A DNA stretch of 10,927 bases. Source: a virus. Below the pieces are notes generated by a model. That model was not told where the DNA came from. It worked only from the letters and a program-made list of their open reading frames with translations, and ran no database searches. The DNA lies in IMG/VR virus record IMGVR_UViG_3300045988_035751, positions 1 to 10,927 of that record; one strand, 5' to 3'. The position numbers were made by a program, and so were the translations under genes. This document shows, piece by piece, positions 1-10,927 of this stretch (position 1 is its first letter; each line of letters starts with the position of its first letter).

Positions 1-16
1 ATGCACAACAAACCCC

Positions 17-56
17 TTTTTAACATTTCCCAACACATTTTTAACATTCGCCAACA
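17..56 (+). repeat. Two direct repeats inside the ITR with a 21-bp period: TTTTTAACATT-NNN-CAACA
   Basis: 17..35 is tttttaacatttcccaaca and 38..56 is tttttaacattcgccaaca. Sixteen to 17 of 19 positions are identical. The pair is mirrored at 10872..10911 in the right ITR. Confidence 0.8.
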
Positions 57-59
57 GAG

Positions 60-91
60 TTTGGCACGCTTTTTGCATAGGCCGTGCCAAA
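60..91 (+). promoter_or_regulatory. Palindromic ITR element TTTGGCACG-N14-CGTGCCAAA containing a full match to the sigma-54 -24/-12 consensus (62..78)
   Basis: Half-sites at 60..68 and 83..91 are exact reverse complements. 62..78 reads TGGCACG-CTTT-TTGCA-T, which is TGGCACG-N4-TTGCW with the GG-to-GC offset of 12 nt. The mirror copy lies at 10837..10868. The function (promoter or origin/protein-binding site) is unresolved. Confidence 0.5.
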
Positions 92-132
92 CCTCCAAAA
101 TTAAAGAAAAAAAACACATCACAGCAAAACAA

Positions 133-153
133 TTTGGCACGTTATTTGTATAG
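133..153 (+). promoter_or_regulatory. Second, slightly degenerate copy of the terminal motif (TTTGGCACGTTATTTGTATAG)
   Basis: 135..150 reads TGGCACG-TTAT-TTGTA, with GT in place of GC at the -12 position. It has the same orientation as the ITR copy and lies 73 bp further in. Confidence 0.4.
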
Positions 154-198
154 AAAAAAATAAAAATTCGCCTTTTAAGATTTATTAAGACTAAAAAA

Positions 199-230
199 TT
201 TGCATAGAGTACACAAAGTTACTACCTTTG
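199..230 (+). promoter_or_regulatory. Bacteroidota-type promoter (-33 TTTG, -7 TAnnTTTG) for the early genes
   Basis: TTTG at 199..202, a 20-nt spacer, then TAccTTTG at 223..230. The extended form TTTGCA...TTTGCAAT is shared with the promoter at 7207..7238. Confidence 0.55.
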
Positions 231-317
231 CAATATCAAAATAAAACAATAAAGCAATTTGTATCATATACATACGACTTGCTACAGGGTAAATTATTTA
301 CTAAATAAAAAGGTAAC

Positions 318-338
318 GCCCCACCTAACCAGTGGGGC
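318..338 (+). promoter_or_regulatory. GC-rich stem-loop in the 5' leader (GCCCCAC-ctaacca-GTGGGGC)
   Basis: A 7-bp perfect stem, 6 of 7 pairs GC, with a 7-nt loop. It ends 17 nt upstream of the ATG at 355. No T-tract follows on the + strand. Confidence 0.35.
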
Positions 339-354
339 AACCAACAAAATAACA

Positions 355-606
355 ATGGCAACCACCCCACAAATGTACGATGAGATTGCACGTATTTTAC
401 GCGTAACTCGTAACAATGTTGAGTATGAAGCAGAGCGTAACAAATCGCAATTACTTTGCGATGTTGCGACAACGTTAGGCAATTTGGCTACTTTAGTAGA
501 CAATATAATCACCGATATAAAGGCGCGCGAAATCTCGCAAAAGAAAGAGAGCGAGCGAAACAGCGCCAATAACTTCTACATGGAGCGTTTCACAAAGCAA
601 CTTTAG
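355..606 (+). CDS. Small helical early protein (83 aa), function unknown
   Basis: The ORF track gives 259..606. I prefer the internal Met33 (ATG at 355, MATTPQMYDEIARIL...) because 259..354 spans the leader hairpin and encodes an atypical H/C/Y-rich peptide. The start at 259 cannot be excluded. Confidence 0.6.
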   Translation: MATTPQMYDEIARILRVTRNNVEYEAERNKSQLLCDVATTLGNLATLVDNIITDIKAREISQKKESERNSANNFYMERFTKQL

Positions 607-622
607 AACCCTATTATATAAC

Positions 623-662
623 GTTTCACGTGAAACAAAATACAAATTGTTTCACGTGGAAC
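623..662. promoter_or_regulatory. Pair of operator-like palindromes, GTTTCACGTGAAAC and GTTTCACGTGGAAC
   Basis: 623..636 is a perfect 14-bp palindrome. 649..662 is the same sequence with one change. The centres are 26 bp apart and both lie in the 72-bp intergenic gap before the gene at 679. Confidence 0.5.
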
Positions 663-678
663 ACTAACAAAAACCGAA

Positions 679-885
679 ATGAAAAAGAAGATTTTTAAGA
701 ACGTAGGCCAATACATTTTTTTGGTGTATGCCTTTGCATTTATTGGTTGCTTACTCTACCTTTGCGCAATCCTACAAAGTTGCTCAATGTACAGACAAAC
801 CGACATTAACGGCAAAGCCACGATTGTAACCACAGACACAACGTACATCAATCATAACACTTTACTTAAATATCCAAAGAAATGA
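679..885 (+). CDS. Small secreted or lipoprotein-like membrane protein (68 aa)
   Basis: MKKKIFK n-region, a hydrophobic core YIFLVYAFAFIGCLLYLCAIL, and Cys residues in lipobox-like contexts (FIGC, LQSC). Its stop overlaps the next start (ATGA at 882..885). Confidence 0.6.
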   Translation: MKKKIFKNVGQYIFLVYAFAFIGCLLYLCAILQSCSMYRQTDINGKATIVTTDTTYINHNTLLKYPKK

Positions 886-1052
886 ACGAAGAACAAAACG
901 TATTTGATGAAGCGATATTTACCGCTTGCACATCATTAGGCCAACTTATGACCACCAAAGAAGTTAACGCGAATACTCGCACACTTCTTAAAATCTCGAA
1001 GTTTAGAAACTTCCTGATTACATTAGGCAACGAACATACAGCTAACAACTAA
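882..1052 (+). CDS. Unlisted 56-aa ORF (MNEEQNVFDEAIFTACTSLGQLMTTKEVNANTRTLLKISKFRNFLITLGNEHTANN)
   Basis: Hand-translated with no internal stop. It falls below the 60-aa cutoff of the ORF track. It fills an otherwise 178-bp gap in a densely packed genome and is coupled to the upstream gene by an ATGA overlap. Confidence 0.45.
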   Translation: MNEEQNVFDEAIFTACTSLGQLMTTKEVNANTRTLLKISKFRNFLITLGNEHTANN

Positions 1053-1063
1053 AGTACTAAGTT

Positions 1064-1417
1064 ATGACAAGTTTTGCAGAAACGTATAATAAGGGCAATA
1101 TTAACCCTTTTAAGTTTGACCTTAAAGGCTATGAATTTACTAGCCTTAAAGAGTTATACAACAGCGACCCCAACAAAGTACACGCGCTTGACGGGTTTTA
1201 TTTTACCCGTGGTAAGTTCGGTGTAAAAGTCGTGGTTGTGATGTCAGACGTAAAAAAGCGTGTTGATATGCCTATATACCTAACAAAGGTATTTAATGAC
1301 ATCGTAAATAACACGGATGCAGTAAATGACATCAAAAACGGCAAAGTTGGTTTTGTGGTACGAAAGTACGAGAGCCACGGCCGCAACTGCCACACTATTA
1401 GTTTTAAGGACATCTAA
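1064..1417 (+). CDS. 117-aa beta-rich protein; candidate phi29 p5-type ssDNA-binding protein (function tentative)
   Basis: Clean ORF that ends just before a terminator. Its size, its position upstream of the TP-polymerase pair, and the C-terminal pattern KVVVVMSD...GKVGFVVRKYESHGRNCHTISF resemble phi29 SSB as I recall it. Confidence 0.7.
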   Translation: MTSFAETYNKGNINPFKFDLKGYEFTSLKELYNSDPNKVHALDGFYFTRGKFGVKVVVVMSDVKKRVDMPIYLTKVFNDIVNNTDAVNDIKNGKVGFVVRKYESHGRNCHTISFKDI

Positions 1418-1430
1418 CAAGTAACACATT

Positions 1431-1468
1431 TAGGTAGATAGAATATAACTATCTACCTATTTTAATTT
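1431..1468 (+). terminator. Intrinsic terminator or attenuator after the early gene block
   Basis: An 11-bp perfect stem TAGGTAGATAG (1431..1441) / CTATCTACCTA (1449..1459) with a 7-nt loop, followed by TTTTAATTT (1460..1468). Confidence 0.7.
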
Positions 1469-1475
1469 AAGCACT

Positions 1476-2114
1476 ATGCCTAACAAGATAGGATACAAAC
1501 AGAGTGTATTTACAGCAACTCAACGTACAGAGTTAAGGCAGGATATAATACAAAGTGTTGAGAGTAGCCCCGAACTCCGTAAGGAGGTAAGGCGCGTATT
1601 TCAACAAGCAAATAGACGCATACAGAATATCGAAGAAAAAGGCCTTTTAAGCCCCGCGGTAACAGCACTAAACAAAGGCGATATTAAAGGCTTTAGCAAA
1701 TTTTCTGTCAGTGGTCAAAGTTGGGACGAAATAAAAACAGAGTACGCAAAGGCAGTATCTTTTTTGCGTCAACCTACGAGTACAGCGCAAGGCACACGAA
1801 CGTATAACGACCACCTAAAAACCGCGTACGGCCTTACTGACAAAGAATTTAATTTAATGGCTGATAAGCTAAATGAAAAGCTAACAAGTTTAAGCGATAG
1901 CGATTTTGTCGAAAAATACCTAATGAGGTATAAAGACTTCACGGGCGACCTAGAGCAAAGCGCAAGGGACGCGAGCGAGCAAATTGAAAGTGAAGCAGTA
2001 AGTCTACAAAACGCGATAAATAGCAATATTGAAAGCGAGGCCAACAAATTAACTAACGAAGTCGAAAGCGAGATAAGCAGCATACTAGACGAATTTAATA
2101 ATTTCGGACTATGA
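1476..2114 (+). CDS. Candidate terminal protein (212 aa), the primer for protein-primed replication
   Basis: It lies immediately upstream of the PolB gene and is translationally coupled to it (ATGA at 2111..2114), as TP genes are in phi29-like phages. It has a basic N-terminal part (RKEVRRVFQQANRRIQNIEEKG), a segment SWDEIKTEYAKAVSFLRQ resembling phi29 TP FNKWKEQASSFTNR, and an acidic Ser-rich C-terminus. Confidence 0.6.
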   Translation: MPNKIGYKQSVFTATQRTELRQDIIQSVESSPELRKEVRRVFQQANRRIQNIEEKGLLSPAVTALNKGDIKGFSKFSVSGQSWDEIKTEYAKAVSFLRQPTSTAQGTRTYNDHLKTAYGLTDKEFNLMADKLNEKLTSLSDSDFVEKYLMRYKDFTGDLEQSARDASEQIESEAVSLQNAINSNIESEANKLTNEVESEISSILDEFNNFGL

Positions 2115-4297
2115 AAAAGGTGCATTATGAGCAACAAAGTGGTATTTATAAGGCAACCGACATAAAAGATATTTTGCAGTTGGCCGTAAATGACAAAAAC
2201 GTAATAGGCAATAACAAAGGGTGTAAATTTTACAACGTCCCTTGTGCCTTTGATATCGAAGTAAGTAGCTTTTACCGAGACGGAGACGGCAGCACATACA
2301 CGTACGAGCAGTGCACCAAATTAGGTGTAAAAATGGAAAAGTGTGCTATTATGTACGTGTGGCAATTTGGTATAAATGGGTACGTAATAGTTGGCCGTAC
2401 ATGGGACGAGTTTACATCCATGTGTAACACGATAGCAAAAACGTTGGAGTTATCCACTAACAAAAAACTAATTGTGTACATTCATAATCTATCTTACGAA
2501 TTTCAATTTTTGCGTACTTTGTTTGATTGGGAGAAAGTTTTTAGCATTGATTTGCGCAAACCCCTATACGCTACTACAACTATAGGTATAGAATTTAGGT
2601 GTAGCTACTTGTTAAGCGGTTATAATTTGGCAAAGTTAGGCGAACAGCTACAAACGTACAAATGCGCAAAAATGGTTGGAGATTTGGACTACACCAAAAT
2701 ACGACACACCCAAACAGATTTAACCCCTAAAGAGTTGATGTATTGCGTGAATGATATAAGAGTGGTTATGAACTACATACAAGAGCAATTAGAGCAAAAC
2801 AAGTTAATAACAAGATTGCCCCTAACCAAAACAGGGTATGTCCGTAAGCATTGCCGCAAAGCGATGTTAAGTAAAAATGTAAACGGCAAAACCGCAAGAA
2901 ATTGGCAGTGTATAAACTTAATCCACTCGCTAACTATCAACGGCCTACACGAATTTAATATGTTGCAAAGGGCGTTTAGTGGCGGCTTTACGCACGGCAA
3001 TGCTAACCACATAGATGAAATTTGTGAAGACGTTGCAAGTTACGATTTTACAAGTAGTTACCCATATGTTATGGTATCGGAAAAATTCCCCATGAGTAAG
3101 GGGGTACGAGTGAACCCCCGAAACATGAAAGAATTTGAATACTACATAAGTAAGTACCTTTGTATCTTTGACATTGAATTTACCAACATCTTTGCAAAAG
3201 AGTTGCAAGATAACCCAATAAGTGTAAGCAAATGCTTTGTCAAGGTAAATCACGTGGAGAATAACGGGCGGCTTGTTTGTGCAGCAAAGGTAGCCACTAC
3301 TATAACAAACATAGACTACAACATAATACGCAACTTTTACACGTGGGGAGGTGTTCGTATCGGTGCAATGTATTGTTATAAGGCCGACTATTTACCAACT
3401 GATTTTGTACGTACAATCTTGGATTTGTACGAAAACAAAACAAAATTAAAAGGCGTGCGAGGAAAAGAAGTGGAGTACCTCAATAGTAAGGAAATGTTAA
3501 ATAGTTGCTATGGTATGTGTGTTACTAACCCTTTGCGCGATGATTTTGTGTATAATGGCCAATGGGACGAAAACACACTAACAGACAGCGAAAAGGCCGA
3601 AATGTTGCAGAAGTACAACGAAAGTAAAAACCGCTTTTTGTTTTATCCGTGGGGGGTATTTGTAACCGCGTACGCAAGGCGCAATTTATTTACGGCAATC
3701 TATGATGCAAAGCAAGATTACATTTACAGCGATACTGACAGCATAAAGTTAAAGAATGCAGCAGCACATAAGCGGTATTTTGATATGTACAACAATGTAG
3801 TATATAACAAATTAAGAGCAGCGTGCAAACATCACAACATAGACTTTGCCAAATGCGAACCCGAAACAATTAAGGGAGTTACTAAAACGTTAGGCGTTTG
3901 GGACTACGAAGGGACATACAAACGCTTTAAGACGTTAGGCGCAAAGAGGTACATGATACAGGAAGAAAACGCGCTAAACGTAGGCGGCAAAAGTTATGAA
4001 TATAGTTTGACAATAAGCGGTGTAAACAAAAAAGCGGCTATCCCTTATTTAGTTAAAAAGTATGGTGATGATATATTTAACGCCTTTACAAATTACATTG
4101 AATTTCCGTGCGAGGCCACAGGGAAAAATATACATACATACATAGACTACAAAATAACGGGTGAAGTTACCGACTATCAAGGTAAAAAGTGTACATTTGC
4201 CGAAAATACGGGTGTACACTTAGAGCCAACAAGTTATAACTTATCTTTAAGTATAATGTACCTTAATTACCTAAAGGGTATAAAGCTAAAAGATTAA
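2111..4297 (+). CDS. Family-B DNA polymerase, protein-primed (phi29 gp2-like), 728 aa
   Basis: Exo I is FDIE (D48/E50, 2252..2260). Exo II is HNLSYE (residues 125-130). Exo III is YCVNDIRVV (211-219). RAFSGGFTH precedes motif A DFTSSYP (312-318). Motif B is KEMLNSCYG (460-468). Motif C is YSDTDS (539-544, 3725..3742). The KxY motif is GAKRYM (610-615). PWGVFVTAYARR parallels phi29 PMGVFITAWARY. Confidence 0.97.
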   Translation: MKKVHYEQQSGIYKATDIKDILQLAVNDKNVIGNNKGCKFYNVPCAFDIEVSSFYRDGDGSTYTYEQCTKLGVKMEKCAIMYVWQFGINGYVIVGRTWDEFTSMCNTIAKTLELSTNKKLIVYIHNLSYEFQFLRTLFDWEKVFSIDLRKPLYATTTIGIEFRCSYLLSGYNLAKLGEQLQTYKCAKMVGDLDYTKIRHTQTDLTPKELMYCVNDIRVVMNYIQEQLEQNKLITRLPLTKTGYVRKHCRKAMLSKNVNGKTARNWQCINLIHSLTINGLHEFNMLQRAFSGGFTHGNANHIDEICEDVASYDFTSSYPYVMVSEKFPMSKGVRVNPRNMKEFEYYISKYLCIFDIEFTNIFAKELQDNPISVSKCFVKVNHVENNGRLVCAAKVATTITNIDYNIIRNFYTWGGVRIGAMYCYKADYLPTDFVRTILDLYENKTKLKGVRGKEVEYLNSKEMLNSCYGMCVTNPLRDDFVYNGQWDENTLTDSEKAEMLQKYNESKNRFLFYPWGVFVTAYARRNLFTAIYDAKQDYIYSDTDSIKLKNAAAHKRYFDMYNNVVYNKLRAACKHHNIDFAKCEPETIKGVTKTLGVWDYEGTYKRFKTLGAKRYMIQEENALNVGGKSYEYSLTISGVNKKAAIPYLVKKYGDDIFNAFTNYIEFPCEATGKNIHTYIDYKITGEVTDYQGKKCTFAENTGVHLEPTSYNLSLSIMYLNYLKGIKLKD

Positions 4298-4323
4298 TGT
4301 TCAACGCGAAACAATTTTGAACA

Positions 4324-5454
4324 ATGAAGAAAGAAACAAATAAGAAAGAAACTATAAAATTTTACTCCCTCGCCAACATATTAAACAAAAAGGCAGATTA
4401 TAATATAATATTCGGCGAGCGCTCAAACGGCAAAACATACGCTACTTTGGCGTATGGCCTAAAGAAGTACGTACAAACTGGTGAGCAAATGGCCTATATA
4501 CGTAGGTGGCGCGAGGATTTACGCGGCAAACGTGCAGAAAATCTGTTTACTAACCACGTAGCAAACGGGTACATTGAAGAAGTAACAAAGGGTGAATTCA
4601 ACGCGGTTTTTTACATTGGTGGTAAATGGTATCTAGCAAAATACGACTCCGAAAAAAAGAAGTATGTACCACAAACTACACCTTTTTGCTATGGTTTTTG
4701 TCTGTCAGAGCAGGAACACGAAAAAAGCAGCAGTTACCCCAACGTTACAACAATTGTTTTTGATGAGTTTTTAACTCGTCGCTACTACCTACCCGATGAA
4801 TTTATGCTATTTATGAACTTGTTAAGCACCATAATAAGACAGCGCGACAACGTTAAAGTTTTTATGTTGGGTAACACAATAAACAAGTTTTGCCCCTACT
4901 TTACGGAAATGGGCCTAAAGCAAGTAACTAACATGGAGCAGGGCGCTATCGACATATATAAGTTTGGGCAACATGGTGCAGTAGTAGCGGTGGAGTATTG
5001 CAGTACCATTGTTAAACAAAAAGCAAGTAATAAATATTTTTGCTTTGACAATCAAAACCTTGAAATGATAACGGGCGGAAAGTGGGAAATGTCCGTATAT
5101 CCACACCTACCAACGAAGTACAAGCCTAGTGATGTTTTATTTGTGTATTACATTGTTTTTAACGAATACATTTTGCAGGGCAACATAATACAGCACGGGG
5201 GCGAAAATTTTACATACATACACGTAAAAACCACCCCAATAAAAGACCCCGACAACGCGCTAATATATAGCCTAAGCATGAACGGAAAGCCAAACTACAA
5301 GCGCAAATTAATAAGTAGTGCAACGTACTTAGAGAGCCAAGTTGCGAGGTATTTTGCCACTGATAAAGTATTTTACCAAAATAACGAAGTTGGCGAGATT
5401 GTAAGAAATTATTTAATTACTTCTGCAAAAACCAACATTGTAAGTGTAAAATAA
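4324..5454 (+). CDS. DNA encapsidation ATPase (phi29 gp16-like), 376 aa
   Basis: Walker A is GERSNGKT (residues 31-38, 4414..4437) in the context DYNIIFGERSNGKTY, which parallels phi29 gp16 LNFVIGARGIGKSY. Walker B is TIVFDE (4750..4767). Confidence 0.9.
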   Translation: MKKETNKKETIKFYSLANILNKKADYNIIFGERSNGKTYATLAYGLKKYVQTGEQMAYIRRWREDLRGKRAENLFTNHVANGYIEEVTKGEFNAVFYIGGKWYLAKYDSEKKKYVPQTTPFCYGFCLSEQEHEKSSSYPNVTTIVFDEFLTRRYYLPDEFMLFMNLLSTIIRQRDNVKVFMLGNTINKFCPYFTEMGLKQVTNMEQGAIDIYKFGQHGAVVAVEYCSTIVKQKASNKYFCFDNQNLEMITGGKWEMSVYPHLPTKYKPSDVLFVYYIVFNEYILQGNIIQHGGENFTYIHVKTTPIKDPDNALIYSLSMNGKPNYKRKLISSATYLESQVARYFATDKVFYQNNEVGEIVRNYLITSAKTNIVSVK

Positions 5455-5456
5455 CT

Positions 5457-5468
5457 TTTGTATATTTG
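5457..5468 (+). promoter_or_regulatory. Possible -7 promoter box TAtaTTTG (weak candidate)
   Basis: TATATTTGCA at 5461..5470 resembles the -7 boxes at 223 and 7231, but there is no clean TTTG about 20 nt upstream (only cATTG at 5436..5440). Confidence 0.25.
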
Positions 5469-5491
5469 CAGTATTAATAACACCTTACAAA

Positions 5492-5698
5492 ATGGATATT
5501 ACACAAGTTACACAAATGATTTCAAACGTTGGCTTTCCAATTGCTATGTGCTTAATTGTATTTTATTACATGACAAAGCACGACGAGCTGCACAAGGAAG
5601 AAACCGACAACCTACGTACAACTTTGGAGGATAACACAAATGTACTCAGCGAGTTATCAACCCTTATAAAAACTTTGACAAATGGCAAAGAAAGATAA
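5492..5698 (+). CDS. Small single-pass membrane protein (68 aa), YvrJ-like; possible holin or lysis factor
   Basis: An N-terminal TM segment ISNVGFPIAMCLIVFYYM is followed by a charged helical tail. The GFPI-containing pattern recalls the YvrJ small-membrane-protein family; this is from memory and unverified. Confidence 0.6.
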   Translation: MDITQVTQMISNVGFPIAMCLIVFYYMTKHDELHKEETDNLRTTLEDNTNVLSELSTLIKTLTNGKER

Positions 5699-6572
5699 CT
5701 TATACATAAAGTATCAAGAAGAAATAAAGAACAAAGACAAAAGCGTAAATGGCTACATTCGCAAAATGTTAGCCATAACACAAGCAATGTTTGTGTACAA
5801 AGGTTTACCCGAAACCTTACCACAAAGCAACCTTGAAAACCTTTTGCAGACCAACGGCAATGTTTTTGTAACAGAGGTAGGCGGCAAATTGTACGCTTTT
5901 ACTGGCGGACTTGGGGGTGTCCCCAACGCGTACAACGAAGCCACAGAATACATTGTAAGTAACCCCTATTTGCAACTAAACAAGTCGTACAAAATAGACG
6001 TTGAAGGCGTCCTAATTAAAAATGATAGTGGAGCAAACAGCCTTTTGCCAATCTTTGGTAAATATGGTGTGTTGTGTAGTGATACGCTTTTGTCGCTTAA
6101 CACGTGTTCTGTGTTGTCTCGTATCACCATGTTAATAAGTGCGAGCGATGACAAGACCAAACAAAGCGCGGACGATTTTGTTAACAAAATCATGCAAGGC
6201 GATTTCTCCGTGATTGGTGAAAACGCATTTTTTAAGGGGGTGAACTTGCAAAGTATCAGCACCCAAAGCGCCAACCAAATAACGCAACTTATTGAGTTAT
6301 TACAATACTTCAAGGCGAGCGCGTTTAACGAAATAGGGCTGAATGCAAACTACAACTTAAAGCGCGAGCGGTTGAATACAAGCGAGGTGCAAATGAATGT
6401 GGATGCCCTCAACCCCTACGTTGATAATATGTTGCAAGAGCGCAAAAAGGCAGTGGAAAAAATAAACGCTATGTTTGGCACTGAAATAAGCGTTGAACTT
6501 GGAAGCAGTTGGGCAATCAGAAAGAAGAAAAATAAAACACAAAACGAAGACGATGAAGATAATAAAAAATAA
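5682..6572 (+). CDS. Head-tail connector / portal (phi29 gp10-like upper collar), 296 aa
   Basis: Four segments parallel phi29 gp10. LPETLPQSNLENLLQTNG matches LPPTINPSFLEKSIHQFG. YNEATEYIVSNPYL matches YNQATVFRAANPVY. KRERLNTSEVQMN matches KKERMVTDEVSSN. ERKKAVEKINAMFGTEISVEL matches [21 protein letters not shown]. The phi29 sequence is recalled from memory. Confidence 0.9.
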   Translation: MAKKDNLYIKYQEEIKNKDKSVNGYIRKMLAITQAMFVYKGLPETLPQSNLENLLQTNGNVFVTEVGGKLYAFTGGLGGVPNAYNEATEYIVSNPYLQLNKSYKIDVEGVLIKNDSGANSLLPIFGKYGVLCSDTLLSLNTCSVLSRITMLISASDDKTKQSADDFVNKIMQGDFSVIGENAFFKGVNLQSISTQSANQITQLIELLQYFKASAFNEIGLNANYNLKRERLNTSEVQMNVDALNPYVDNMLQERKKAVEKINAMFGTEISVELGSSWAIRKKKNKTQNEDDEDNKK

Positions 6573-6717
6573 TACTTCTAATATTGGCGAAAATGGCGCT
6601 GAACAGGAGACAGAAACGGAGACAGAAGTAACAGACACCGAAACGGACACCGAAACGGACACCGAAACGGAAACAGAAACGGACGAAGAAAACGAAGAAG
6701 AAAATGAAAATAATTGA
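6553..6717 (+). CDS. Highly acidic 54-aa protein with a (Thr-Glu/Thr-Asp)n tract and an E/N-rich tail
   Basis: The ORF track gives 6493..6717. I prefer the start at Met21 (ATG at 6553), which cuts the overlap with the portal gene to 20 nt. It is the only coding explanation for the 131-bp gap at 6573..6703. The sequence is MKIIKNNTSNIGENGAEQETETETEVTDTETDTETDTETETETDEENEEENENN. Confidence 0.5.
   Translation: MKIIKNNTSNIGENGAEQETETETEVTDTETDTETDTETETETDEENEEENENN
6607..6681 (+). repeat. In-frame tandem repeat with 6-nt periodicity (GAN-ACN); the core is three perfect copies of GACACCGAAACG
   Basis: Perfect 12-nt units at 6634..6645, 6646..6657 and 6658..6669, flanked by variants gagacagaaacg and gaaacagaaacg. 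Confidence 0.9.
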
Positions 6718-7273
6718 CCTTTACCCCGACCCGAAACACGGCCTATTTACGGAGGTTTTTAAAGTTAACTATCCAACGGAATACGCGGCAATATTTGGCA
6801 ACCTTGATAGTGTCGGACTTGATACGCTTGTACTACTCAACTACAGCGAGCGCGAGTGCATTAACACCATAACACAAGCCAACGCAAATGAGTACATAAA
6901 AAATATAATTGCGTTGAGTGTTAACAATTGGGTACGCGTGGCAAATGCCTACAATGCCCAATATGATGTACTTAACCCTATACAGCAGCAGACAACGCGC
7001 GAGGATAAGACAACAGAAAACGCCAACAATAACAATACAAATGTAGCGTCTAACAAACCATATAACGCAACGGATTTTGTTGAGTACGACAAAGATAGTA
7101 CCACATACGACAATACACGTACTAACGATGTTACGAGTACAACAAAAGTAGTTGGTATTGGCTCAAAATCGCCAACGGACGAACTCACAAAAGAAATTGA
7201 ATTTAATTTGCAAAATTGGCGCAAAAGCATTATTTTTGCAATTATAAATGATATAACTAAATTAATATACTAA
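6704..7273 (+). CDS. 189-aa virion-module protein; candidate lower collar/adaptor or scaffold (function unresolved)
   Basis: Clean ORF between the portal and capsid genes. It has an N/T-rich central segment and a hydrophobic/helical C-terminus (ELTKEIEFNLQNWRKSIIFAIINDITKLIY). I recognise no diagnostic motif. Confidence 0.75.
   Translation: MKIIDLYPDPKHGLFTEVFKVNYPTEYAAIFGNLDSVGLDTLVLLNYSERECINTITQANANEYIKNIIALSVNNWVRVANAYNAQYDVLNPIQQQTTREDKTTENANNNNTNVASNKPYNATDFVEYDKDSTTYDNTRTNDVTSTTKVVGIGSKSPTDELTKEIEFNLQNWRKSIIFAIINDITKLIY
7207..7238 (+). promoter_or_regulatory. Bacteroidota-type promoter driving the major capsid gene
   Basis: TTTG at 7207..7210, a 20-nt spacer, then TAttTTTG at 7231..7238. 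The geometry and the TTTGCA...TTTGCAAT extension are identical to the promoter at 199..230. It lies 38 nt upstream of the ATG at 7276. Confidence 0.6.
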
Positions 7274-7275
7274 CA

Positions 7276-8448
7276 ATGGAAGTACAACAAATTTACACAC
7301 TGATAAATTCAGTATCTAAAGAGGTTTTAGGTAACTCCGCACTTGTTAGCGAGGATTTAACGGGGCTTGTCGACCTTGGTAACGAGGTTTTCAACCAAAA
7401 CGCGGTAGACAATTACGTAAAATCACTTGTTAACCATATTGGTAAGGTTGTTTTTGTAAATCGCCCCTACGCAGGTAAAATCCCCTCTGTACTTATGGAT
7501 GCCTGGGAGTTCGGAAGCGTCCTTGAAAAGATTAGCGCGGACTTACCCGAAGCCGAGGAGAATAAAAGTTGGGAACTAACGGACGGCACCGACTACTCGC
7601 AAGATGTATTCCACAAGCCACAAGTTACGGCAAAGTTCTTCAATTCTAAGGTAACTTTTGAAGTCCCCGTTTCAATCACCGAACGCCAGGTAAAAGAAAG
7701 TTTTTCTAACGCTGAGCAACTTAACGCGTTTCTATCGATGATTTACAACGCGGTTGAAAAGTCTATTACCATTAAGACTGATGCGTTAATTATGCGTACT
7801 ATCAATAACATGATAGCGCAAACTTTAATAGCTGATAGCACGGCCTTTGGTGGTGGTGATTCTGTAGACTACACAACCGCTAGCACCGCCCGTTGCGTTA
7901 ACTTGTTGAAGTTGTACAACGATAATAAGGGTACTACTTTGACGGCCGAAAAGGCACTCACAGACCCCGATTTTATCAAGTTCGCAAGTTACACGATTGG
8001 TTTGTACACTGATAGACTTGCAAGTATTTCGAGCGTCTTCAATATTGGCGGTAAGCCACGCTTTACACCGCGCGAAAACTTGCACGTTGTGTTATTGTCA
8101 GACTTTGAAAAGGCCGCCCGTGCTTACTTGTACAGCGATACGTACAACAAAGAGCAGGTACTATTACCTAACGCGGAAAGTGTTCCATTTTGGCAGGGCA
8201 GCGGTACAAAGTACGATTTCGCGAGCACGGCACACATCACAATCAAGGAGACGGGCGGCAAACCCGTTGATATTAGAGGTGTGTTAGGTGTTATGTTCGA
8301 CCGCGATGCCTTAGGCGTGTGCAACCTCAACCGCCGCGTAACTACTAACTATAACGCAAAGGCCGAGTTCTTTAATAATTACTATAAGTTTGATGCGGGC
8401 TATTTCAATGACACGAGCGAAAACTTTGTAGTTTTCTTCGTTGCTTAG
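7276..8448 (+). CDS. Major capsid protein (phi29 gp8-like, HK97-fold lineage), 390 aa
   Basis: Three segments parallel phi29 gp8. NYVKSLVNHIGKVVFV matches DFITSLVDRIGLVVIR. LNAFLSMIYNAVEKS matches FESFVSSIINAIYNS. The C-terminal FFNNYYKFDAGYFNDTSENFVVF matches [23 protein letters not shown]. The gene is flanked by its own promoter and terminator. Confidence 0.92.
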   Translation: MEVQQIYTLINSVSKEVLGNSALVSEDLTGLVDLGNEVFNQNAVDNYVKSLVNHIGKVVFVNRPYAGKIPSVLMDAWEFGSVLEKISADLPEAEENKSWELTDGTDYSQDVFHKPQVTAKFFNSKVTFEVPVSITERQVKESFSNAEQLNAFLSMIYNAVEKSITIKTDALIMRTINNMIAQTLIADSTAFGGGDSVDYTTASTARCVNLLKLYNDNKGTTLTAEKALTDPDFIKFASYTIGLYTDRLASISSVFNIGGKPRFTPRENLHVVLLSDFEKAARAYLYSDTYNKEQVLLPNAESVPFWQGSGTKYDFASTAHITIKETGGKPVDIRGVLGVMFDRDALGVCNLNRRVTTNYNAKAEFFNNYYKFDAGYFNDTSENFVVFFVA

Positions 8449-8469
8449 TTGTTAATGTTGTTGTTGATA

Positions 8470-8500
8470 GGTGGTGTAATATACACCACCTTTTTTATTT
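8470..8500 (+). terminator. Intrinsic terminator after the capsid gene
   Basis: A 9-bp stem GGTGGTGTA (8470..8478) / TACACCACC (8482..8490) with a 3-nt loop, followed by TTTTTTATTTT. Confidence 0.8.
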
Positions 8501-8507
8501 TACTACT

Positions 8508-8948
8508 ATGATATTATATAACTATAAGGGGCAACCTAACACCATAAGCAAAGCACTTACCCCGTTGGGTACGCTTAACGTTGCTTTGCGTCCCGAACTC
8601 AACGTGCATAATCCAACGTTAAAAATACAAATGCCGCCTAATATGTACGGGTTTAATTACGTGTACATTGAGGGATTCGGAAAATATTACTTTGTAGACA
8701 ACATTAGATACATAGGAGGGCAAACGTATTTACTCGCTTTGTCGCTTGATGTATTACAGACATACAAAGATGTTATACTGCAAAGTACCGCGCTAATAGT
8801 GGAGAGCGACAACGCAAACCGCGATTTGTCGGTAAATAGTAACGTGTTTAATGTTTTTCCTAAAACGGAAATATTAAACTTTCCTACTTCAAAACTCTTT
8901 GACACAGAAGGTAGTATTATAATGGTAACACTCAAAGGCAATAAATAG
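8508..8948 (+). CDS. 146-aa protein resembling the N-terminal domain of the phi29 gp9 tail knob (tail tube)
   Basis: FNYVYIEGFGKYYFVDNIRYIGGQTYLLALSLDVLQTYKDVILQSTALIVES parallels phi29 gp9 [58 protein letters not shown], recalled from memory. The TAG stop at 8946..8948 lies 1 nt before the next ATG. Confidence 0.75.
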   Translation: MILYNYKGQPNTISKALTPLGTLNVALRPELNVHNPTLKIQMPPNMYGFNYVYIEGFGKYYFVDNIRYIGGQTYLLALSLDVLQTYKDVILQSTALIVESDNANRDLSVNSNVFNVFPKTEILNFPTSKLFDTEGSIIMVTLKGNK

Positions 8949-8949
8949 T

Positions 8950-10773
8950 ATGGCAGATATAATAACAAACCAAATCCTACATACAACATTCACGTATACG
9001 GAGAGTGCCGGGGCGTATAATATAGTTAGTACCGCTGACACTGGTTTTTTGTTCGACAGCGCAACCACACCACGCGCCCGATTTGATGACGATTTTGGAG
9101 GGGGTAGCGTAAAGGGCAAAATATCTACAGACCTAAAAACGTGCAAATTTAGTGGTGTTAGCGGTACAAATATACGTTTAACTGGTGCTACTAAAGTAGA
9201 CCCCGATTCCCCCGCAGAACCAACGATAACAAACAATATAGTAAACACTACCTATACATATAGTGTAAGCGGTGGTGTACATACCATTGTAGTTACCGCT
9301 GATACTGGGTATCAATTCAACACCGCGCCTACTTGTGCGTACACTGATAGTTTTGGAGGTACCTCGACCGCTAACGGGGTAATAAGTACGAACAAAAGCA
9401 AGGCTACTTTTACCATAGATGACACTGCCAAAAATAGTGCTTTTAACCTTAACGGGGAGGTTGCCGAAAGTACGCCAACTATTACCATAACAAATAATAT
9501 AGAAGGCACATACGCTACATGTACGTACGATAATGGCACTTTCAACGTAACTATAAAAGGCACACAAAGCGGCTATGTTATACAAGCGGCCAACGTAACG
9601 TACACAGATACAGGCGGTGTCTCGCATACTGATGATATGACCATACCGAGCAGCGACACCGCAACCATAGCAATAACAAATGTAAATACTTCTGTGTCCG
9701 TGGTTATTAATGGTACTTATATTAAGGCTATACCCGTTAAAAATACTTTGTATAATTGTACATACGAAAATATACCAACGTATTACACCCCGAACGACAA
9801 AGTAAACGTTACAATACACGCAAAAGAGGGTAGCAAGTTTACAAGCGAGACAGACCCCCCCGAAATACGTTACACTGATGAGTTCGGAGGGGTACAATAC
9901 AAACGTTTCACGATTAGCGATGACGGCAAACAGGGTAGTGTTACACTTGATATCGCAACAGAATGCCCCAAAACTGAGTACATCGAATTTCGTGGAGGGG
10001 CGCAAGTTGAGGTACAGCCAAGTATTAAAAATTATGGCTCTATTAACGTGTATGTTGTAACGTTAGATAACCTTGACGCATTTAGCAAAAAGCGTTACTT
10101 CACGGAAAGCGGTACGTTTATAACGTACGAGCAAGATTTAAGCGAGTATATAAACCGAATTAAGCGTATTTATACGCACATACCAACAAAAGGTACTGAC
10201 CGAATAAAATGCGGCAACTATGACACCGAGATAAATGCCGAGCTACCCGAAAAGGATATAATAACCCTTGATTTTGGAGGTATCACAATACCACGCAAAG
10301 ATAACACCACACTTGACAAAGATATGATAATAGAGGTATTTTTGCCGTTCGTGGGTATTGTTAGTTTGTCTTCTGATTATGTCGGTAAAACTGTAAAGTT
10401 GGTGTACGATATAAATGTAATAAGCGGTGACGGGGTTTGTAAATTGTTGGATAGCAACGATTTACCCATACAATTGCATAACGTACAACCTAATACGGAT
10501 ATATTGTACACGACTTACAACACGTTCGTAATAGGTAGTGACAGGTGGGACGCTCAAAATTTATATGGCCTTGAGCCGTTTGTGCGGCTGAATTACTTTA
10601 CTAATGAGTACAGCGATACACGCGGCAATGACTACAAAAAAGTTGTACTTTCGCAATGTGCAAAAGGTTTTTATAAGTTTGACGAGATTGTAAATAATGA
10701 TATAGACAACGTGCCGAAAAGCGAATACAACGAAATTGTTAATTTATTGCAAAGCGGTGTATTTATAGATTAA
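8950..10773 (+). CDS. 607-aa tail protein with four N-terminal tandem beta-rich repeat domains and a gp9-like tail-knob C-terminal region
   Basis: It is the longest late ORF. The C-terminus [34 protein letters not shown] parallels the phi29 gp9 C-terminus [58 protein letters not shown] resembles the gp9 segment [25 protein letters not shown]. Confidence 0.88.
   Translation: [607 protein letters not shown]
8962..9999 (+). repeat. Four tandem protein-level repeats of about 80-88 aa within the tail gene
   Basis: R1 is 8962..9189 ([35 protein letters not shown]...FDDDFGG...LTGA). R2 is 9226..9459 ([35 protein letters not shown]...YTDSFGG...LNGE). R3 is 9481..9720 ([36 protein letters not shown]...YTDTGG...INGT). 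R4 is 9736..9999 ([12 protein letters not shown]...[14 protein letters not shown]...YTDEFGG...FRGG). Confidence 0.75.
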
Positions 10774-10779
10774 CGGCCT

Positions 10780-10798
10780 ATGCAAATAGCGTGCCAAA
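10780..10798 (-). promoter_or_regulatory. Inner right-end copy of the terminal motif (minus-strand TGGCACG-CTAT-TTGCA-T)
   Basis: The reverse complement of 10780..10796 is tggcacgctatttgcat, a full match to TGGCACG-N4-TTGCW. It faces inward and lies 70 bp from the right ITR copy (10850..10866). Confidence 0.4.
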
Positions 10799-10821
10799 TG
10801 CTTTTGGTACGCTATTTTTTT
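10790..10821 (+). terminator. Probable intrinsic terminator of the late operon, built from two terminal-motif half-sites
   Basis: CGTGCCAAA (10790..10798), a tgct loop, then TTTGGTACG (10803..10811). This gives a 9-bp stem with one G-T/G-U position, followed after 3 nt by a T7 run (10815..10821). It begins 17 nt after the tail gene stop. Confidence 0.55.
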
Positions 10822-10830
10822 GTTTCTTCG

Positions 10831-10927
10831 TGGAGGTTTGGCACGGCCTATGCAAAAAGCGTGCCAAACTCTGTTGGCGAATGTTAAAAATGTGTTGGGA
10901 AATGTTAAAAAGGGGTTTGTTGTGCAT
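10831..10927. repeat. Right inverted terminal repeat (97 bp, perfect)
   Basis: Exact reverse complement of 1..97. Confidence 0.97.

Follow-up and report, generated by a model that had tools for sequence, protein, structure and literature searches.

Three described systems come closest to the DNA analysed here, a 10,927-nt virus contig (IMG/VR record IMGVR_UViG_3300045988_035751, positions 1 to 10,927) that we call, at its full length, the window. Bacillus phage phi29 (Salasmaviridae) combines terminal protein (TP)-primed replication by a family B DNA polymerase (PolB) with a gp16 ATPase, a gp10 connector, a gp8-type major capsid protein (MCP), gp9 and gp11 tail parts, and an AAA terminus, in a 19.3-kb genome with 6-bp inverted terminal repeats (ITRs) and divergent early and late operons. 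Streptococcus phage Cp-1 (Salasmaviridae) has a 236-bp ITR, an AAA-starting terminus, and early genes, TP, PolB, and all late genes pointing rightward; its 19.3-kb genome also carries a scaffold gene, several tail genes, a holin and an endolysin, and three leftward open reading frames (ORFs) at the right end. Astrithrvirus and its allies have ~11-kb genomes with ITRs and encode, in order, TP, PolB, a gp16 ATPase, a small transmembrane protein, connector, short lower collar, MCP, the N-terminal part of the tail knob, and a large distal tail protein with Ig-like domains. A split knob is known from Astrid and Phanie and, together with a short collar, characterizes phi29-like phages of Gram-negative hosts (PMC11476376). 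As we discuss below, the window is very probably the near-complete linear genome of an uncultivated phi29-type podophage, a member of a gut clade that is sister to the Astrithrvirus group, with a Bacteroidota host most likely.

The gene order and the Ig-like distal tail protein of Astrithrvirus recur in the window, nine of whose 13 genes have Astrithrvirus homologues (55–60% identity for MCP, ~50% for the ATPase, 40–45% for PolB), and g12, g13, and g10 of the window match the split-knob plus short-collar architecture. However, the window has no nucleotide similarity to Astrithrvirus and so falls outside that genus at the nucleotide threshold; protein identities are 23–58%. It is also 200–950 bp smaller than Astrithrvirus-type genomes, has no CHAP/amidase lysin gene after the tail gene, carries four small early genes at the left end instead of leftward genes at the right end, and, unlike Astrithrvirus, has sigma-54-like boxes in its ITRs, Bacteroidota-type promoters, and no Shine-Dalgarno sites; the last two differences suggest a host from a different phylum. 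The proteins (TP as a candidate) and terminus listed above for phi29, and the long ITR, terminus, and rightward gene layout of Cp-1, are common to the window or its clade. By contrast, the genome length, ITR length, and divergent operons of phi29 are not, and its packaging RNA (pRNA), scaffold, head fibres, appendages, gp13 tail lysin, and gp15 endolysin were not found in the window. Cp-1 differs in its length, scaffold, additional tail genes, lysis genes, leftward ORFs, and Gram-positive host, and its proteins are only distantly related to those of the window. Gut contigs (IMG/VR; GenBank OP072940–OP076514, faecal 'Bacteriophage sp.') belong to the same clade and share its ITR architecture, terminus, promoters, and sigma-54-like boxes. 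The value of the window lies in four clade-level features read from sequence: a likely Bacteroidota host, no detectable endolysin, apparent ITR-driven shuffling of terminal genes, and the sigma-54-like boxes of the ITRs.

The ITRs and the replication, packaging, and virion genes are as follows.
1–97, no strand: left ITR, exact over 97 nt, without what would be the true terminal 4 nt (5'-AAAT)
1476–2114, plus strand: TP candidate, 212 aa; its stop codon overlaps the PolB start codon
2111–4297, plus strand: protein-primed PolB, 728 aa (PF03175, 2.9e-12; phrog_1907, 6.9e-72)
4324–5454, plus strand: gp16-type DNA packaging ATPase, 376 aa (PF05894, 6.4e-22; phrog_2150, 9.2e-34)
5492–5698, plus strand: g8, holin-like protein of 68 aa with a single transmembrane segment (phrog_4898 'holin', 9.4e-11); syntenic homologue of astrithr gp05
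5682–6717, plus strand: connector (upper collar/portal; PF05352, 3.3e-16; phrog_2038), reading 296 aa (5682–6572)
6704–7273, plus strand: g10, short lower-collar candidate, 189 aa, 3' of the connector gene like phi29 gp11
7276–8448, plus strand: phi29-type MCP with the HK97 fold, 390 aa (PF25622, 1.4e-54)
8508–8948, plus strand: g12, proximal (N-terminal) part of a split tail knob according to profile matches, 146 aa
8950–10773, plus strand: g13, distal tail protein, 607 aa, with four tandem Ig-like domains (residues 1–350) and a conserved C-terminal domain (residues ~355–607)
10831–10927, no strand: right ITR, exact reverse complement of 1–97

First, the proteins of this set argue for a phi29-type podophage. 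The PF05894, PF05352, and PF25622 matches of the ATPase, connector, and MCP all exceeded curated cut-offs. The Exo I–III, Pol A/B/C, and KxY motifs of PolB were legible (DIE, NLSYE, YcvnD, DftSsYP, KemlNScYG, YsDTDS, KRY), as were Walker A (GERSNGKT) and Walker B (IVFDE) sequences in the ATPase translation. The TP candidate lies directly 5' of PolB, as in phi29, Cp-1, and Astrithrvirus, and is 33% identical to astrithr gp02, which has been called p3-like (PMC11476376); its profile matches to phrog_6358 'DNA terminal protein' (E=0.086) and, by hhalign, to the TPs of phi29, GA-1, and Cp-1 (E=0.019) were weak, and its AlphaFold2 (AF2) model (pLDDT 43) was left out of the fold search. For g10, hhalign found homology to astrithr gp07 (97.6%, E=4.8e-12), and a match to gp11 was weak (E=0.013), with a common ...IF..N.I...Y sequence at the C-terminal end. 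The g12 profile matched the phage C1 tail-knob protein (gp12, 4eo2; residues 51–143, E=0.0085) and, by hhalign, gp9 of phi29, GA-1, and Cp-1 (residues 91–143, E=6e-4), in both cases in the N-terminal part of the knob. PDB profile searches with the TP candidate, g4, and g10 returned nothing meaningful.

The AF2 model of g13 consists of four Ig-like domains plus a low-confidence C-terminal domain, and its best species-named viral match in a Foldseek search of BFVD was the 568-aa tail protein of Salmonella phage Astrid (E=7.9e-20). Against PDB, Foldseek returned Ig/FN3 arrays only and no lysin fold, and PDB profiles likewise returned only Ig-like domains. Residues 308–606 matched Entb_47 by tblastn (E=4e-6), and the C-terminal domain is probably the counterpart of the distal knob portion in Astrithrvirus gp10, an assignment that the low-confidence AF2 domain did not directly confirm by fold. 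g13 is likely to be the receptor-binding protein. Thus profiles bore out the PolB, gp16-type ATPase, connector, and MCP proposed in an initial annotation of the window, whereas the single gp9-like knob gene of that annotation proved to be split in two; its broader description of an ITR-bounded, protein-primed podophage of the phi29 type is supported, and protein priming is almost certain.

All 13 genes lie on the plus strand. The initial annotation had counted 14, but ORF 6493–6717 is the 3' end of the connector gene, detached from it by a single additional A at ~6565–6570, where the window has A6 and nine relatives have A5. Connectors of relatives are 340–363 aa long and end in an acidic TE/TD-repeat tail equivalent to this ORF; the 296-aa product of the window retains the full Pfam connector domain and lacks the acidic tail. 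Among the relatives compared, the 1-nt frameshift is unique to this contig, and it may reflect either an error in sequencing or a genuine truncation. The claim that every gene is on one strand held up: the longest antisense ORF (9178–10005, 275 aa, inside the tail gene) is not conserved and was rejected, both because its stop-free run shrinks to 86–189 codons in relatives and because substitutions there peak at third positions of the plus-strand frame. ORFs 1–153 and 10778–10927 were not counted as genes either; they lie within the terminal ~150 nt of exact plus imperfect ITR and overlap conserved repeat and box elements. A tRNA scan of the window found none, and an Rfam scan gave only a sub-threshold sRNA match on the MCP terminator.

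Second, the ends of the window lie close to true DNA ends. The window is a whole contig, since JGI/IMG and ENA list its MCP, PolB, and tail protein on a contig that is 10,927 nt long, and the exact 97-bp ITRs of the initial annotation are present at both edges; the match continues at 96% out to 113 nt and at ~77% out to ~153 nt. Among ends of relatives' contigs that reach the terminal signature, 27 begin precisely at 5'-AAA(T/G). In five relatives' contigs, Illumina adapter sequence (...CTCTTCCGATCT) is joined straight onto the terminal AAA, and a 33.9-kb ENA contig turns into unrelated DNA right after ...GTGCATATTT, so that adapter or foreign DNA abuts AAATATGCAC directly. These junctions indicate that the physical terminus of the window's subclade is 5'-AAATATGCAC; that of the sister subclade is 5'-AAAGGTACGC, and phi29 ends in AAAGTA. 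Because the window starts at ATGCAC, it would be 4 nt short at each end, giving a true genome of ~10,935 bp with ITRs of ~101 bp. The initial claim of an entire genome therefore stands in essence, apart from the 4 nt that, judged by relatives' termini, are absent at each end.

The 33.9-kb contig (L084; ENA ERZ27272161 k141_156845) also bears on a different explanation, in which the window is an integrated or plasmid-like element, or an assembly artefact with assembler-made ITRs, and not a free phage genome. L084 places a complete relative beside bacterial genes, and the contigs of some relatives end in adapter sequence or in 'ITRs' too long to be plausible. However, L084 is chimeric and was rejected as evidence of integration: on the left the junction lies within the ITR, whereas on the right an unrelated gene follows exactly at the phage terminus. 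Moreover, the same terminal sequence occurs on 10.6–12-kb contigs from dozens of independent assemblies, and Pfam and PHROGs profile searches found no integrase or partition gene in the window. We regard this explanation as very improbable. The left junction of L084 runs from a truncated SecA gene to ITR position 88 and the right one from the phage terminus to a decarboxylase-like gene; we read this chimera as an incidental mark of the true DNA end.

Sliding-back initiation, as used by phi29 and Cp-1, requires an AAA terminus. The terminal base reiteration of the clade end (AAATATGCAC or AAAGGTACGC) would permit this step, the AAA being missing from this contig and supplied by comparison with relatives. 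By homology, the TP (1476–2114) would prime PolB (2111–4297) at both ends on the template 3'-TTTATACG. Conserved ITR repeats would act as origin elements, and two kinds of element are present in or next to the ITRs.
17–57, plus strand: two tandem 20/21-nt repeats, TTTTTAACATT(T/C)(C/G)CCAACA, inside the ITR
62–77, plus strand: sigma-54-like −24/−12 box TGGCACGCTTTTTGCA, inside a palindrome (59–92, 10-bp arms)
135–150, plus strand: further sigma-54-like box with 1 mismatch, pointing inward
10781–10796, minus strand: further sigma-54-like box, pointing inward
10851–10866, minus strand: further sigma-54-like box, pointing inward
The TTTAACRTTTCCCAAC block of the tandem repeats was nearly invariant in an alignment of both gut subclades, and the repeats are candidate origin elements or recognition elements for TP or polymerase.

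The boxes match the sigma-54 consensus TGGCAC-N5-TTGC (PMC12316311), also written TGGCACG-N4-TTGCA. The window contains six matches with no more than 1 mismatch (0.47 expected); the ITR boxes read TTTGGCACG[CG]TTTTTG[CT], with the spacer conserved too. A site of this type, pointing inward and no more than 330 nt from an end, was present in 63 of 69 gut-clade loci and in no Astrithrvirus ITR. The inner right box doubles as one arm of a terminator hairpin (10784–10817). A role of the box as part of a Bacteroidota −33/−7 promoter was rejected because the spacing does not fit. The boxes could be promoters or protein-binding elements of the origin; we know of no phage for which host sigma-54 sites in ITRs have been described as serving early transcription or the origin. 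Some subclade-2 genomes have an extra minus-strand copy near 5300, which again sits in a palindrome.

Third, the regulatory signals of the window point to its host.
199–230, plus strand: early promoter 5' of g1, of the Bacteroidota primary type, TTTG-N20-TACCTTTG
1431–1459, plus strand: intrinsic terminator-like hairpin, 11-bp stem then T-run, between the g1–g4 block and the TP gene
7207–7238, plus strand: Bacteroidota-type promoter TTTG-N20-TATTTTTG, 38 nt 5' of the MCP start codon
8469–8491, plus strand: intrinsic terminator after the MCP gene, 10-bp stem then TTTTTTATTTT
10784–10817, plus strand: strong terminator hairpin after the last gene, 15-bp stem then T-run
We found five matches to the pattern TTTG-N19-21-TAnnTTTG in the window (0.43 expected), two of which are plus-strand copies at promoter-like places; both promoters recur at equivalent places in the relatives L004, L010, and L014, and the −7 box TAYCTTTGCA is kept in both subclades. 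The consensus for Bacteroidota promoters was taken from PMC7366714, and these promoters and the missing Shine-Dalgarno sites of the phylum are treated in PMC7366714, PMC6847099, and PMC3155529. Shine-Dalgarno-like motifs precede none of the 13 window genes, 0–1 of 11–15 genes in gut-clade relatives, and 5–9 of 10–12 genes in Astrithrvirus-type genomes. Based upon the missing Shine-Dalgarno sites and the conserved TTTG-N20-TAnnTTTG promoters, the phage most likely infects one of the Bacteroidota, and the primary sigma factor of this host would read the promoters at 199–230 and 7207–7238. If confirmed, this host would firmly extend phi29-type protein-primed phages to a phylum for which only one predicted case is mentioned in PMC11476376.

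Genome collections were not informative about the host, as all 13 matches were ~11-kb contigs of metagenome-assembled genomes (MAGs) from unrelated taxa and were treated as binning noise. Two relatives without Shine-Dalgarno sites, L089 and L090 (QHMG01000022.1 and CAAGHI010000088.1; MCP 75% identical), were independently binned in Melainabacteria/Gastranaerophilales MAGs, which may be a real host link for their branch.

The terminators after g4, the MCP gene, and the last gene fit purely rightward transcription in at least one early and one late block, and transcription would thus proceed only rightward, through the terminators at 1431, 8469, and 10784. The early promoter and the ATG of g1 are separated by ~115 nt (260–354) that include a GC-rich hairpin (317–339); several relatives have an extra 86-aa gene at this place, and the segment is either a structured leader or a gene remnant.

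The early block encodes four small proteins.
355–606, plus strand: g1, terminal early gene, 83 aa, ATG at 355 (alternative TTG start at 259)
679–885, plus strand: g2, 68-aa lipoprotein found throughout the gut clade, with a signal peptide and the invariant lipobox Cys35 (..LQ[SG]C)
882–1052, plus strand: g3, 56-aa early protein, conserved and collinear in the gut clade
1064–1417, plus strand: g4, 117-aa early protein adjoining the TP gene upstream, present in all gut-clade loci and in L089–L098
A possible DNA-binding role of g1 is hinted at by a weak Pfam match to Sigma70_r4 (E=0.1). The mature peptide of g2 (~33 aa) aligned with high conservation as TxxGKxTIxTTDTT. In other phages, small lipoproteins serve as spanins or exclude superinfecting phages. 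Searches of Pfam and PHROGs found no family for g3. We propose from the position of g4 that it might be a replication accessory, either a single-stranded DNA-binding protein or another DNA-binding protein; a PDB profile search and hhalign comparisons with phi29 p5 and astrithr gp13 gave no match for it.

No lysis enzyme was recognized among the genes of the window. A tblastn search with three Astrithrvirus-type lysins (CHAP/amidase) found no match in the window or in 80 IMG/VR gut loci, Pfam, PHROGs, PDB-profile, and Foldseek searches of the window proteins found no muralytic domain, and the stop codon of the tail gene is only 10 bp from the terminator. In L089/L090, the leftward right-end block contains an M15-peptidase-like ORF (L089:10655–11077, minus strand; SGFRC...SQHQKGLAADL) with no homologue in subclades 1 and 2. 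We know of no established tailed phage without an endolysin. Somewhat favoured here is a lytic phage that is fully autonomous and has an unrecognizable lysis enzyme, either a novel small lysis protein or a muralytic activity in g1–g4, g8, or the C-terminal domain of g13. Although the domain searches just described speak against it, this explanation fits a complete and densely coded genome with its own promoters and terminators, an extremely abundant clade, the conservation of holin-like g8 and of g2 as an exported lipoprotein, and the presence of four small conserved proteins to which no function is assigned.

The example of Phanie makes helper dependence a live alternative: experiments showed that its infectivity depends on the tail of a co-infecting myophage (PMC11476376). 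By analogy, the window could be a satellite-like podophage that enters cells by commandeering the contractile tail of a co-infecting phage and may also need that phage for lysis, which would explain both the missing endolysin and the minimal tail. The window has a split knob like that of Phanie, neither the window nor the 80 IMG/VR gut relatives encode a homologue of the Astrithrvirus CHAP/amidase or of the M15-like peptidase of L089/L090, and the names of several cultured relatives, such as 'K58 g2', suggest co-isolation. However, Phanie has an amidase gene of its own, and lysin loss is therefore no part of its known strategy; Salmonella phage Astrid has been described as a non-satellite (bioRxiv 10.1101/2025.06.18.659913); and the window holds a holin-like gene together with a full replication, packaging, and virion set. 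We consider helper dependence unlikely. With 13 genes and neither a scaffold nor an endolysin found, the genome offers a useful lower bound for the gene set of a tailed phage, and its route of lysis or need for a helper is a concrete, testable question. More speculatively, and with considerable doubt, the members of this clade, as the most abundant mini-podophages of the human gut, may be endolysin-free Bacteroidota phages, either lysing their hosts through g2, g3, g4, or g8 or living as satellites, with functional sigma-54 sites in their ITRs.

Fourth, the one-strand layout can be traced to a single terminal gene. Window g1 is homologous to a minus-strand gene at the right end of sister clades, including L089/L090 (hhalign 98.7%, E=3e-16). 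A hidden Markov model search for g1 in loci of at least 10 kb gave the following census.
Left end only, plus strand: 12 loci, all in the window's subclade
Right end only, minus strand: 50 loci
Both ends, inside ITRs of 617 and 1,050 nt: 2 loci (L014 and L041)
No g1: 17 loci
Examples are L033 (10873–11226, minus strand), L014 (302–604, plus; 10986–11288, minus), and L041 (345–716, plus; 11970–12341, minus), and the 366-nt ITR of L017 retains the first 16 g1 codons (the 5' end) at the right end. Most likely, to judge from these arrangements, g1 moved when ITR expansion duplicated the gene and contraction followed at the other end. All window genes are on one strand because g1 sits at the left end here and, reversed, at the right end in sister clades. 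The initial annotation contrasted this layout with divergent operons; the contrast holds for phi29, but Cp-1 and Astrithrvirus are nearly collinear, with 2–4 small leftward genes at the right end. Shuttling of g1 through growth and shrinkage of the ITR would provide a simple model for the evolution of gene orientation in linear protein-primed genomes.

Several points count against the overall interpretation. The TP assignment depends on synteny and weak profile matches (E=0.02–0.09), with an AF2 model that was unusable, and both the missing 4 nt and the covalently bound TP are deductions. Motors of the phi29 type need a pRNA, and no Rfam pRNA family matched the window up to E=1; RNAalifold found no covariation in region 86–260. 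An RNA structure z-score of −3.4 at 86–354 reflected ordinary hairpins and was rejected as a pRNA signal. Because pRNAs diverge quickly, one may have escaped detection. The host call is indirect, and MAG bins of relatives are inconsistent (Prevotella, Scatosoma, Melainabacteria, Staphylococcaceae, and others). The absence of a detectable endolysin leaves the lysis step unexplained, and the contigs with g1 at both ends (L014 and L041) could be assembly artefacts. With these points taken into account, a near-complete phi29-type podophage genome is still the reading that we strongly prefer. As judged by homology, its gp16-type ATPase would package TP-capped DNA through the gp10-type connector into a phi29-type capsid, and the tail would comprise a short lower collar (g10), a split knob (g12 and the C-terminal part of g13), and Ig-like adsorption domains.

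When the whole window was compared with 50,697 phage records by megablast, no match emerged, and thus no near-identity to a described phage; such near-identity would, according to the initial annotation, have refuted its proposal. Its suggestion of a probably undescribed lineage nevertheless fails, given catalogued faecal relatives and cultured Astrithrvirus-type cousins at the MCP and PolB identities cited above. At the protein level, the closest relatives in culture are the Salmonella phages astrithr, assan, and Astrid, Pectobacterium DU_PP_III, Acinetobacter Phanie, Enterobacter Entb_47, Shigella vB_SHGBLB0004, and a Vibrio record; the best cultured MCP matches (55–60%) extend over the full length, and the next group reaches no more than 36%. 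We found 340 related contigs in IMG/VR, nearly all of 10.6–12 kb, and more than 8,000 MCP matches in the protein collection, with some TP variants on more than 100 contigs. The closest relative, L004 (UViG_3300045988_035343), has the same 13 genes and 88.4% average nucleotide identity (ANI) over 100% of the window; with the species line at 95% ANI and the ICTV genus threshold at ~70% nucleotide identity, it shares a genus-level cluster with the window but is a separate species. MCP cluster 23 of an earlier review (PMC11476376) already unites 10.4–12.4-kb faecal 'Bacteriophage sp.' records with Astrid and Phanie. The window thus adds a new species to a known group of ~11-kb phi29-type phages that has already been catalogued, within a clade that is itself uncharacterized and that we place as sister to the cultured Astrithrvirus group at roughly family level.

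The initial annotation also placed the window at or below the size of the smallest cultured tailed phages. At ~10,935 bp, it would indeed be smaller than the 11.6-kb benchmark for the smallest isolated tailed phage (Astrid/astrithr; bioRxiv 10.1101/2025.06.18.659913) and than two records of 11,151 bp (Shigella) and 11,162 bp, but the size benchmark of the initial annotation is outdated and the size is ordinary for the clade, which ranges from ~10.75 to 12 kb with a smallest complete member of ~10,750 bp (L017). Complete Astrithrvirus-type records span 11.15–11.9 kb, and the 10,390-bp Vibrio record seems permuted and incomplete. The benchmark study identified complete genomes by direct terminal repeats (bioRxiv 10.1101/2025.06.18.659913), a criterion that likely misses ITR-bounded genomes; as the clade shows, complete tailed-phage genomes of 10.75–11 kb are common in the gut.

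Gene content varies among relatives, some of which carry an extra early gene. L005, L009, and L013 have PolB, ATPase, and MCP sequences 91–96% identical, yet their tail module is different (L005:8687–11367), with g12 ~40% and g13 ~30% identical and a g13 length of 739 aa; TP has also diverged (65%) in L005 and L009. These tail swaps indicate modular recombination within the clade.

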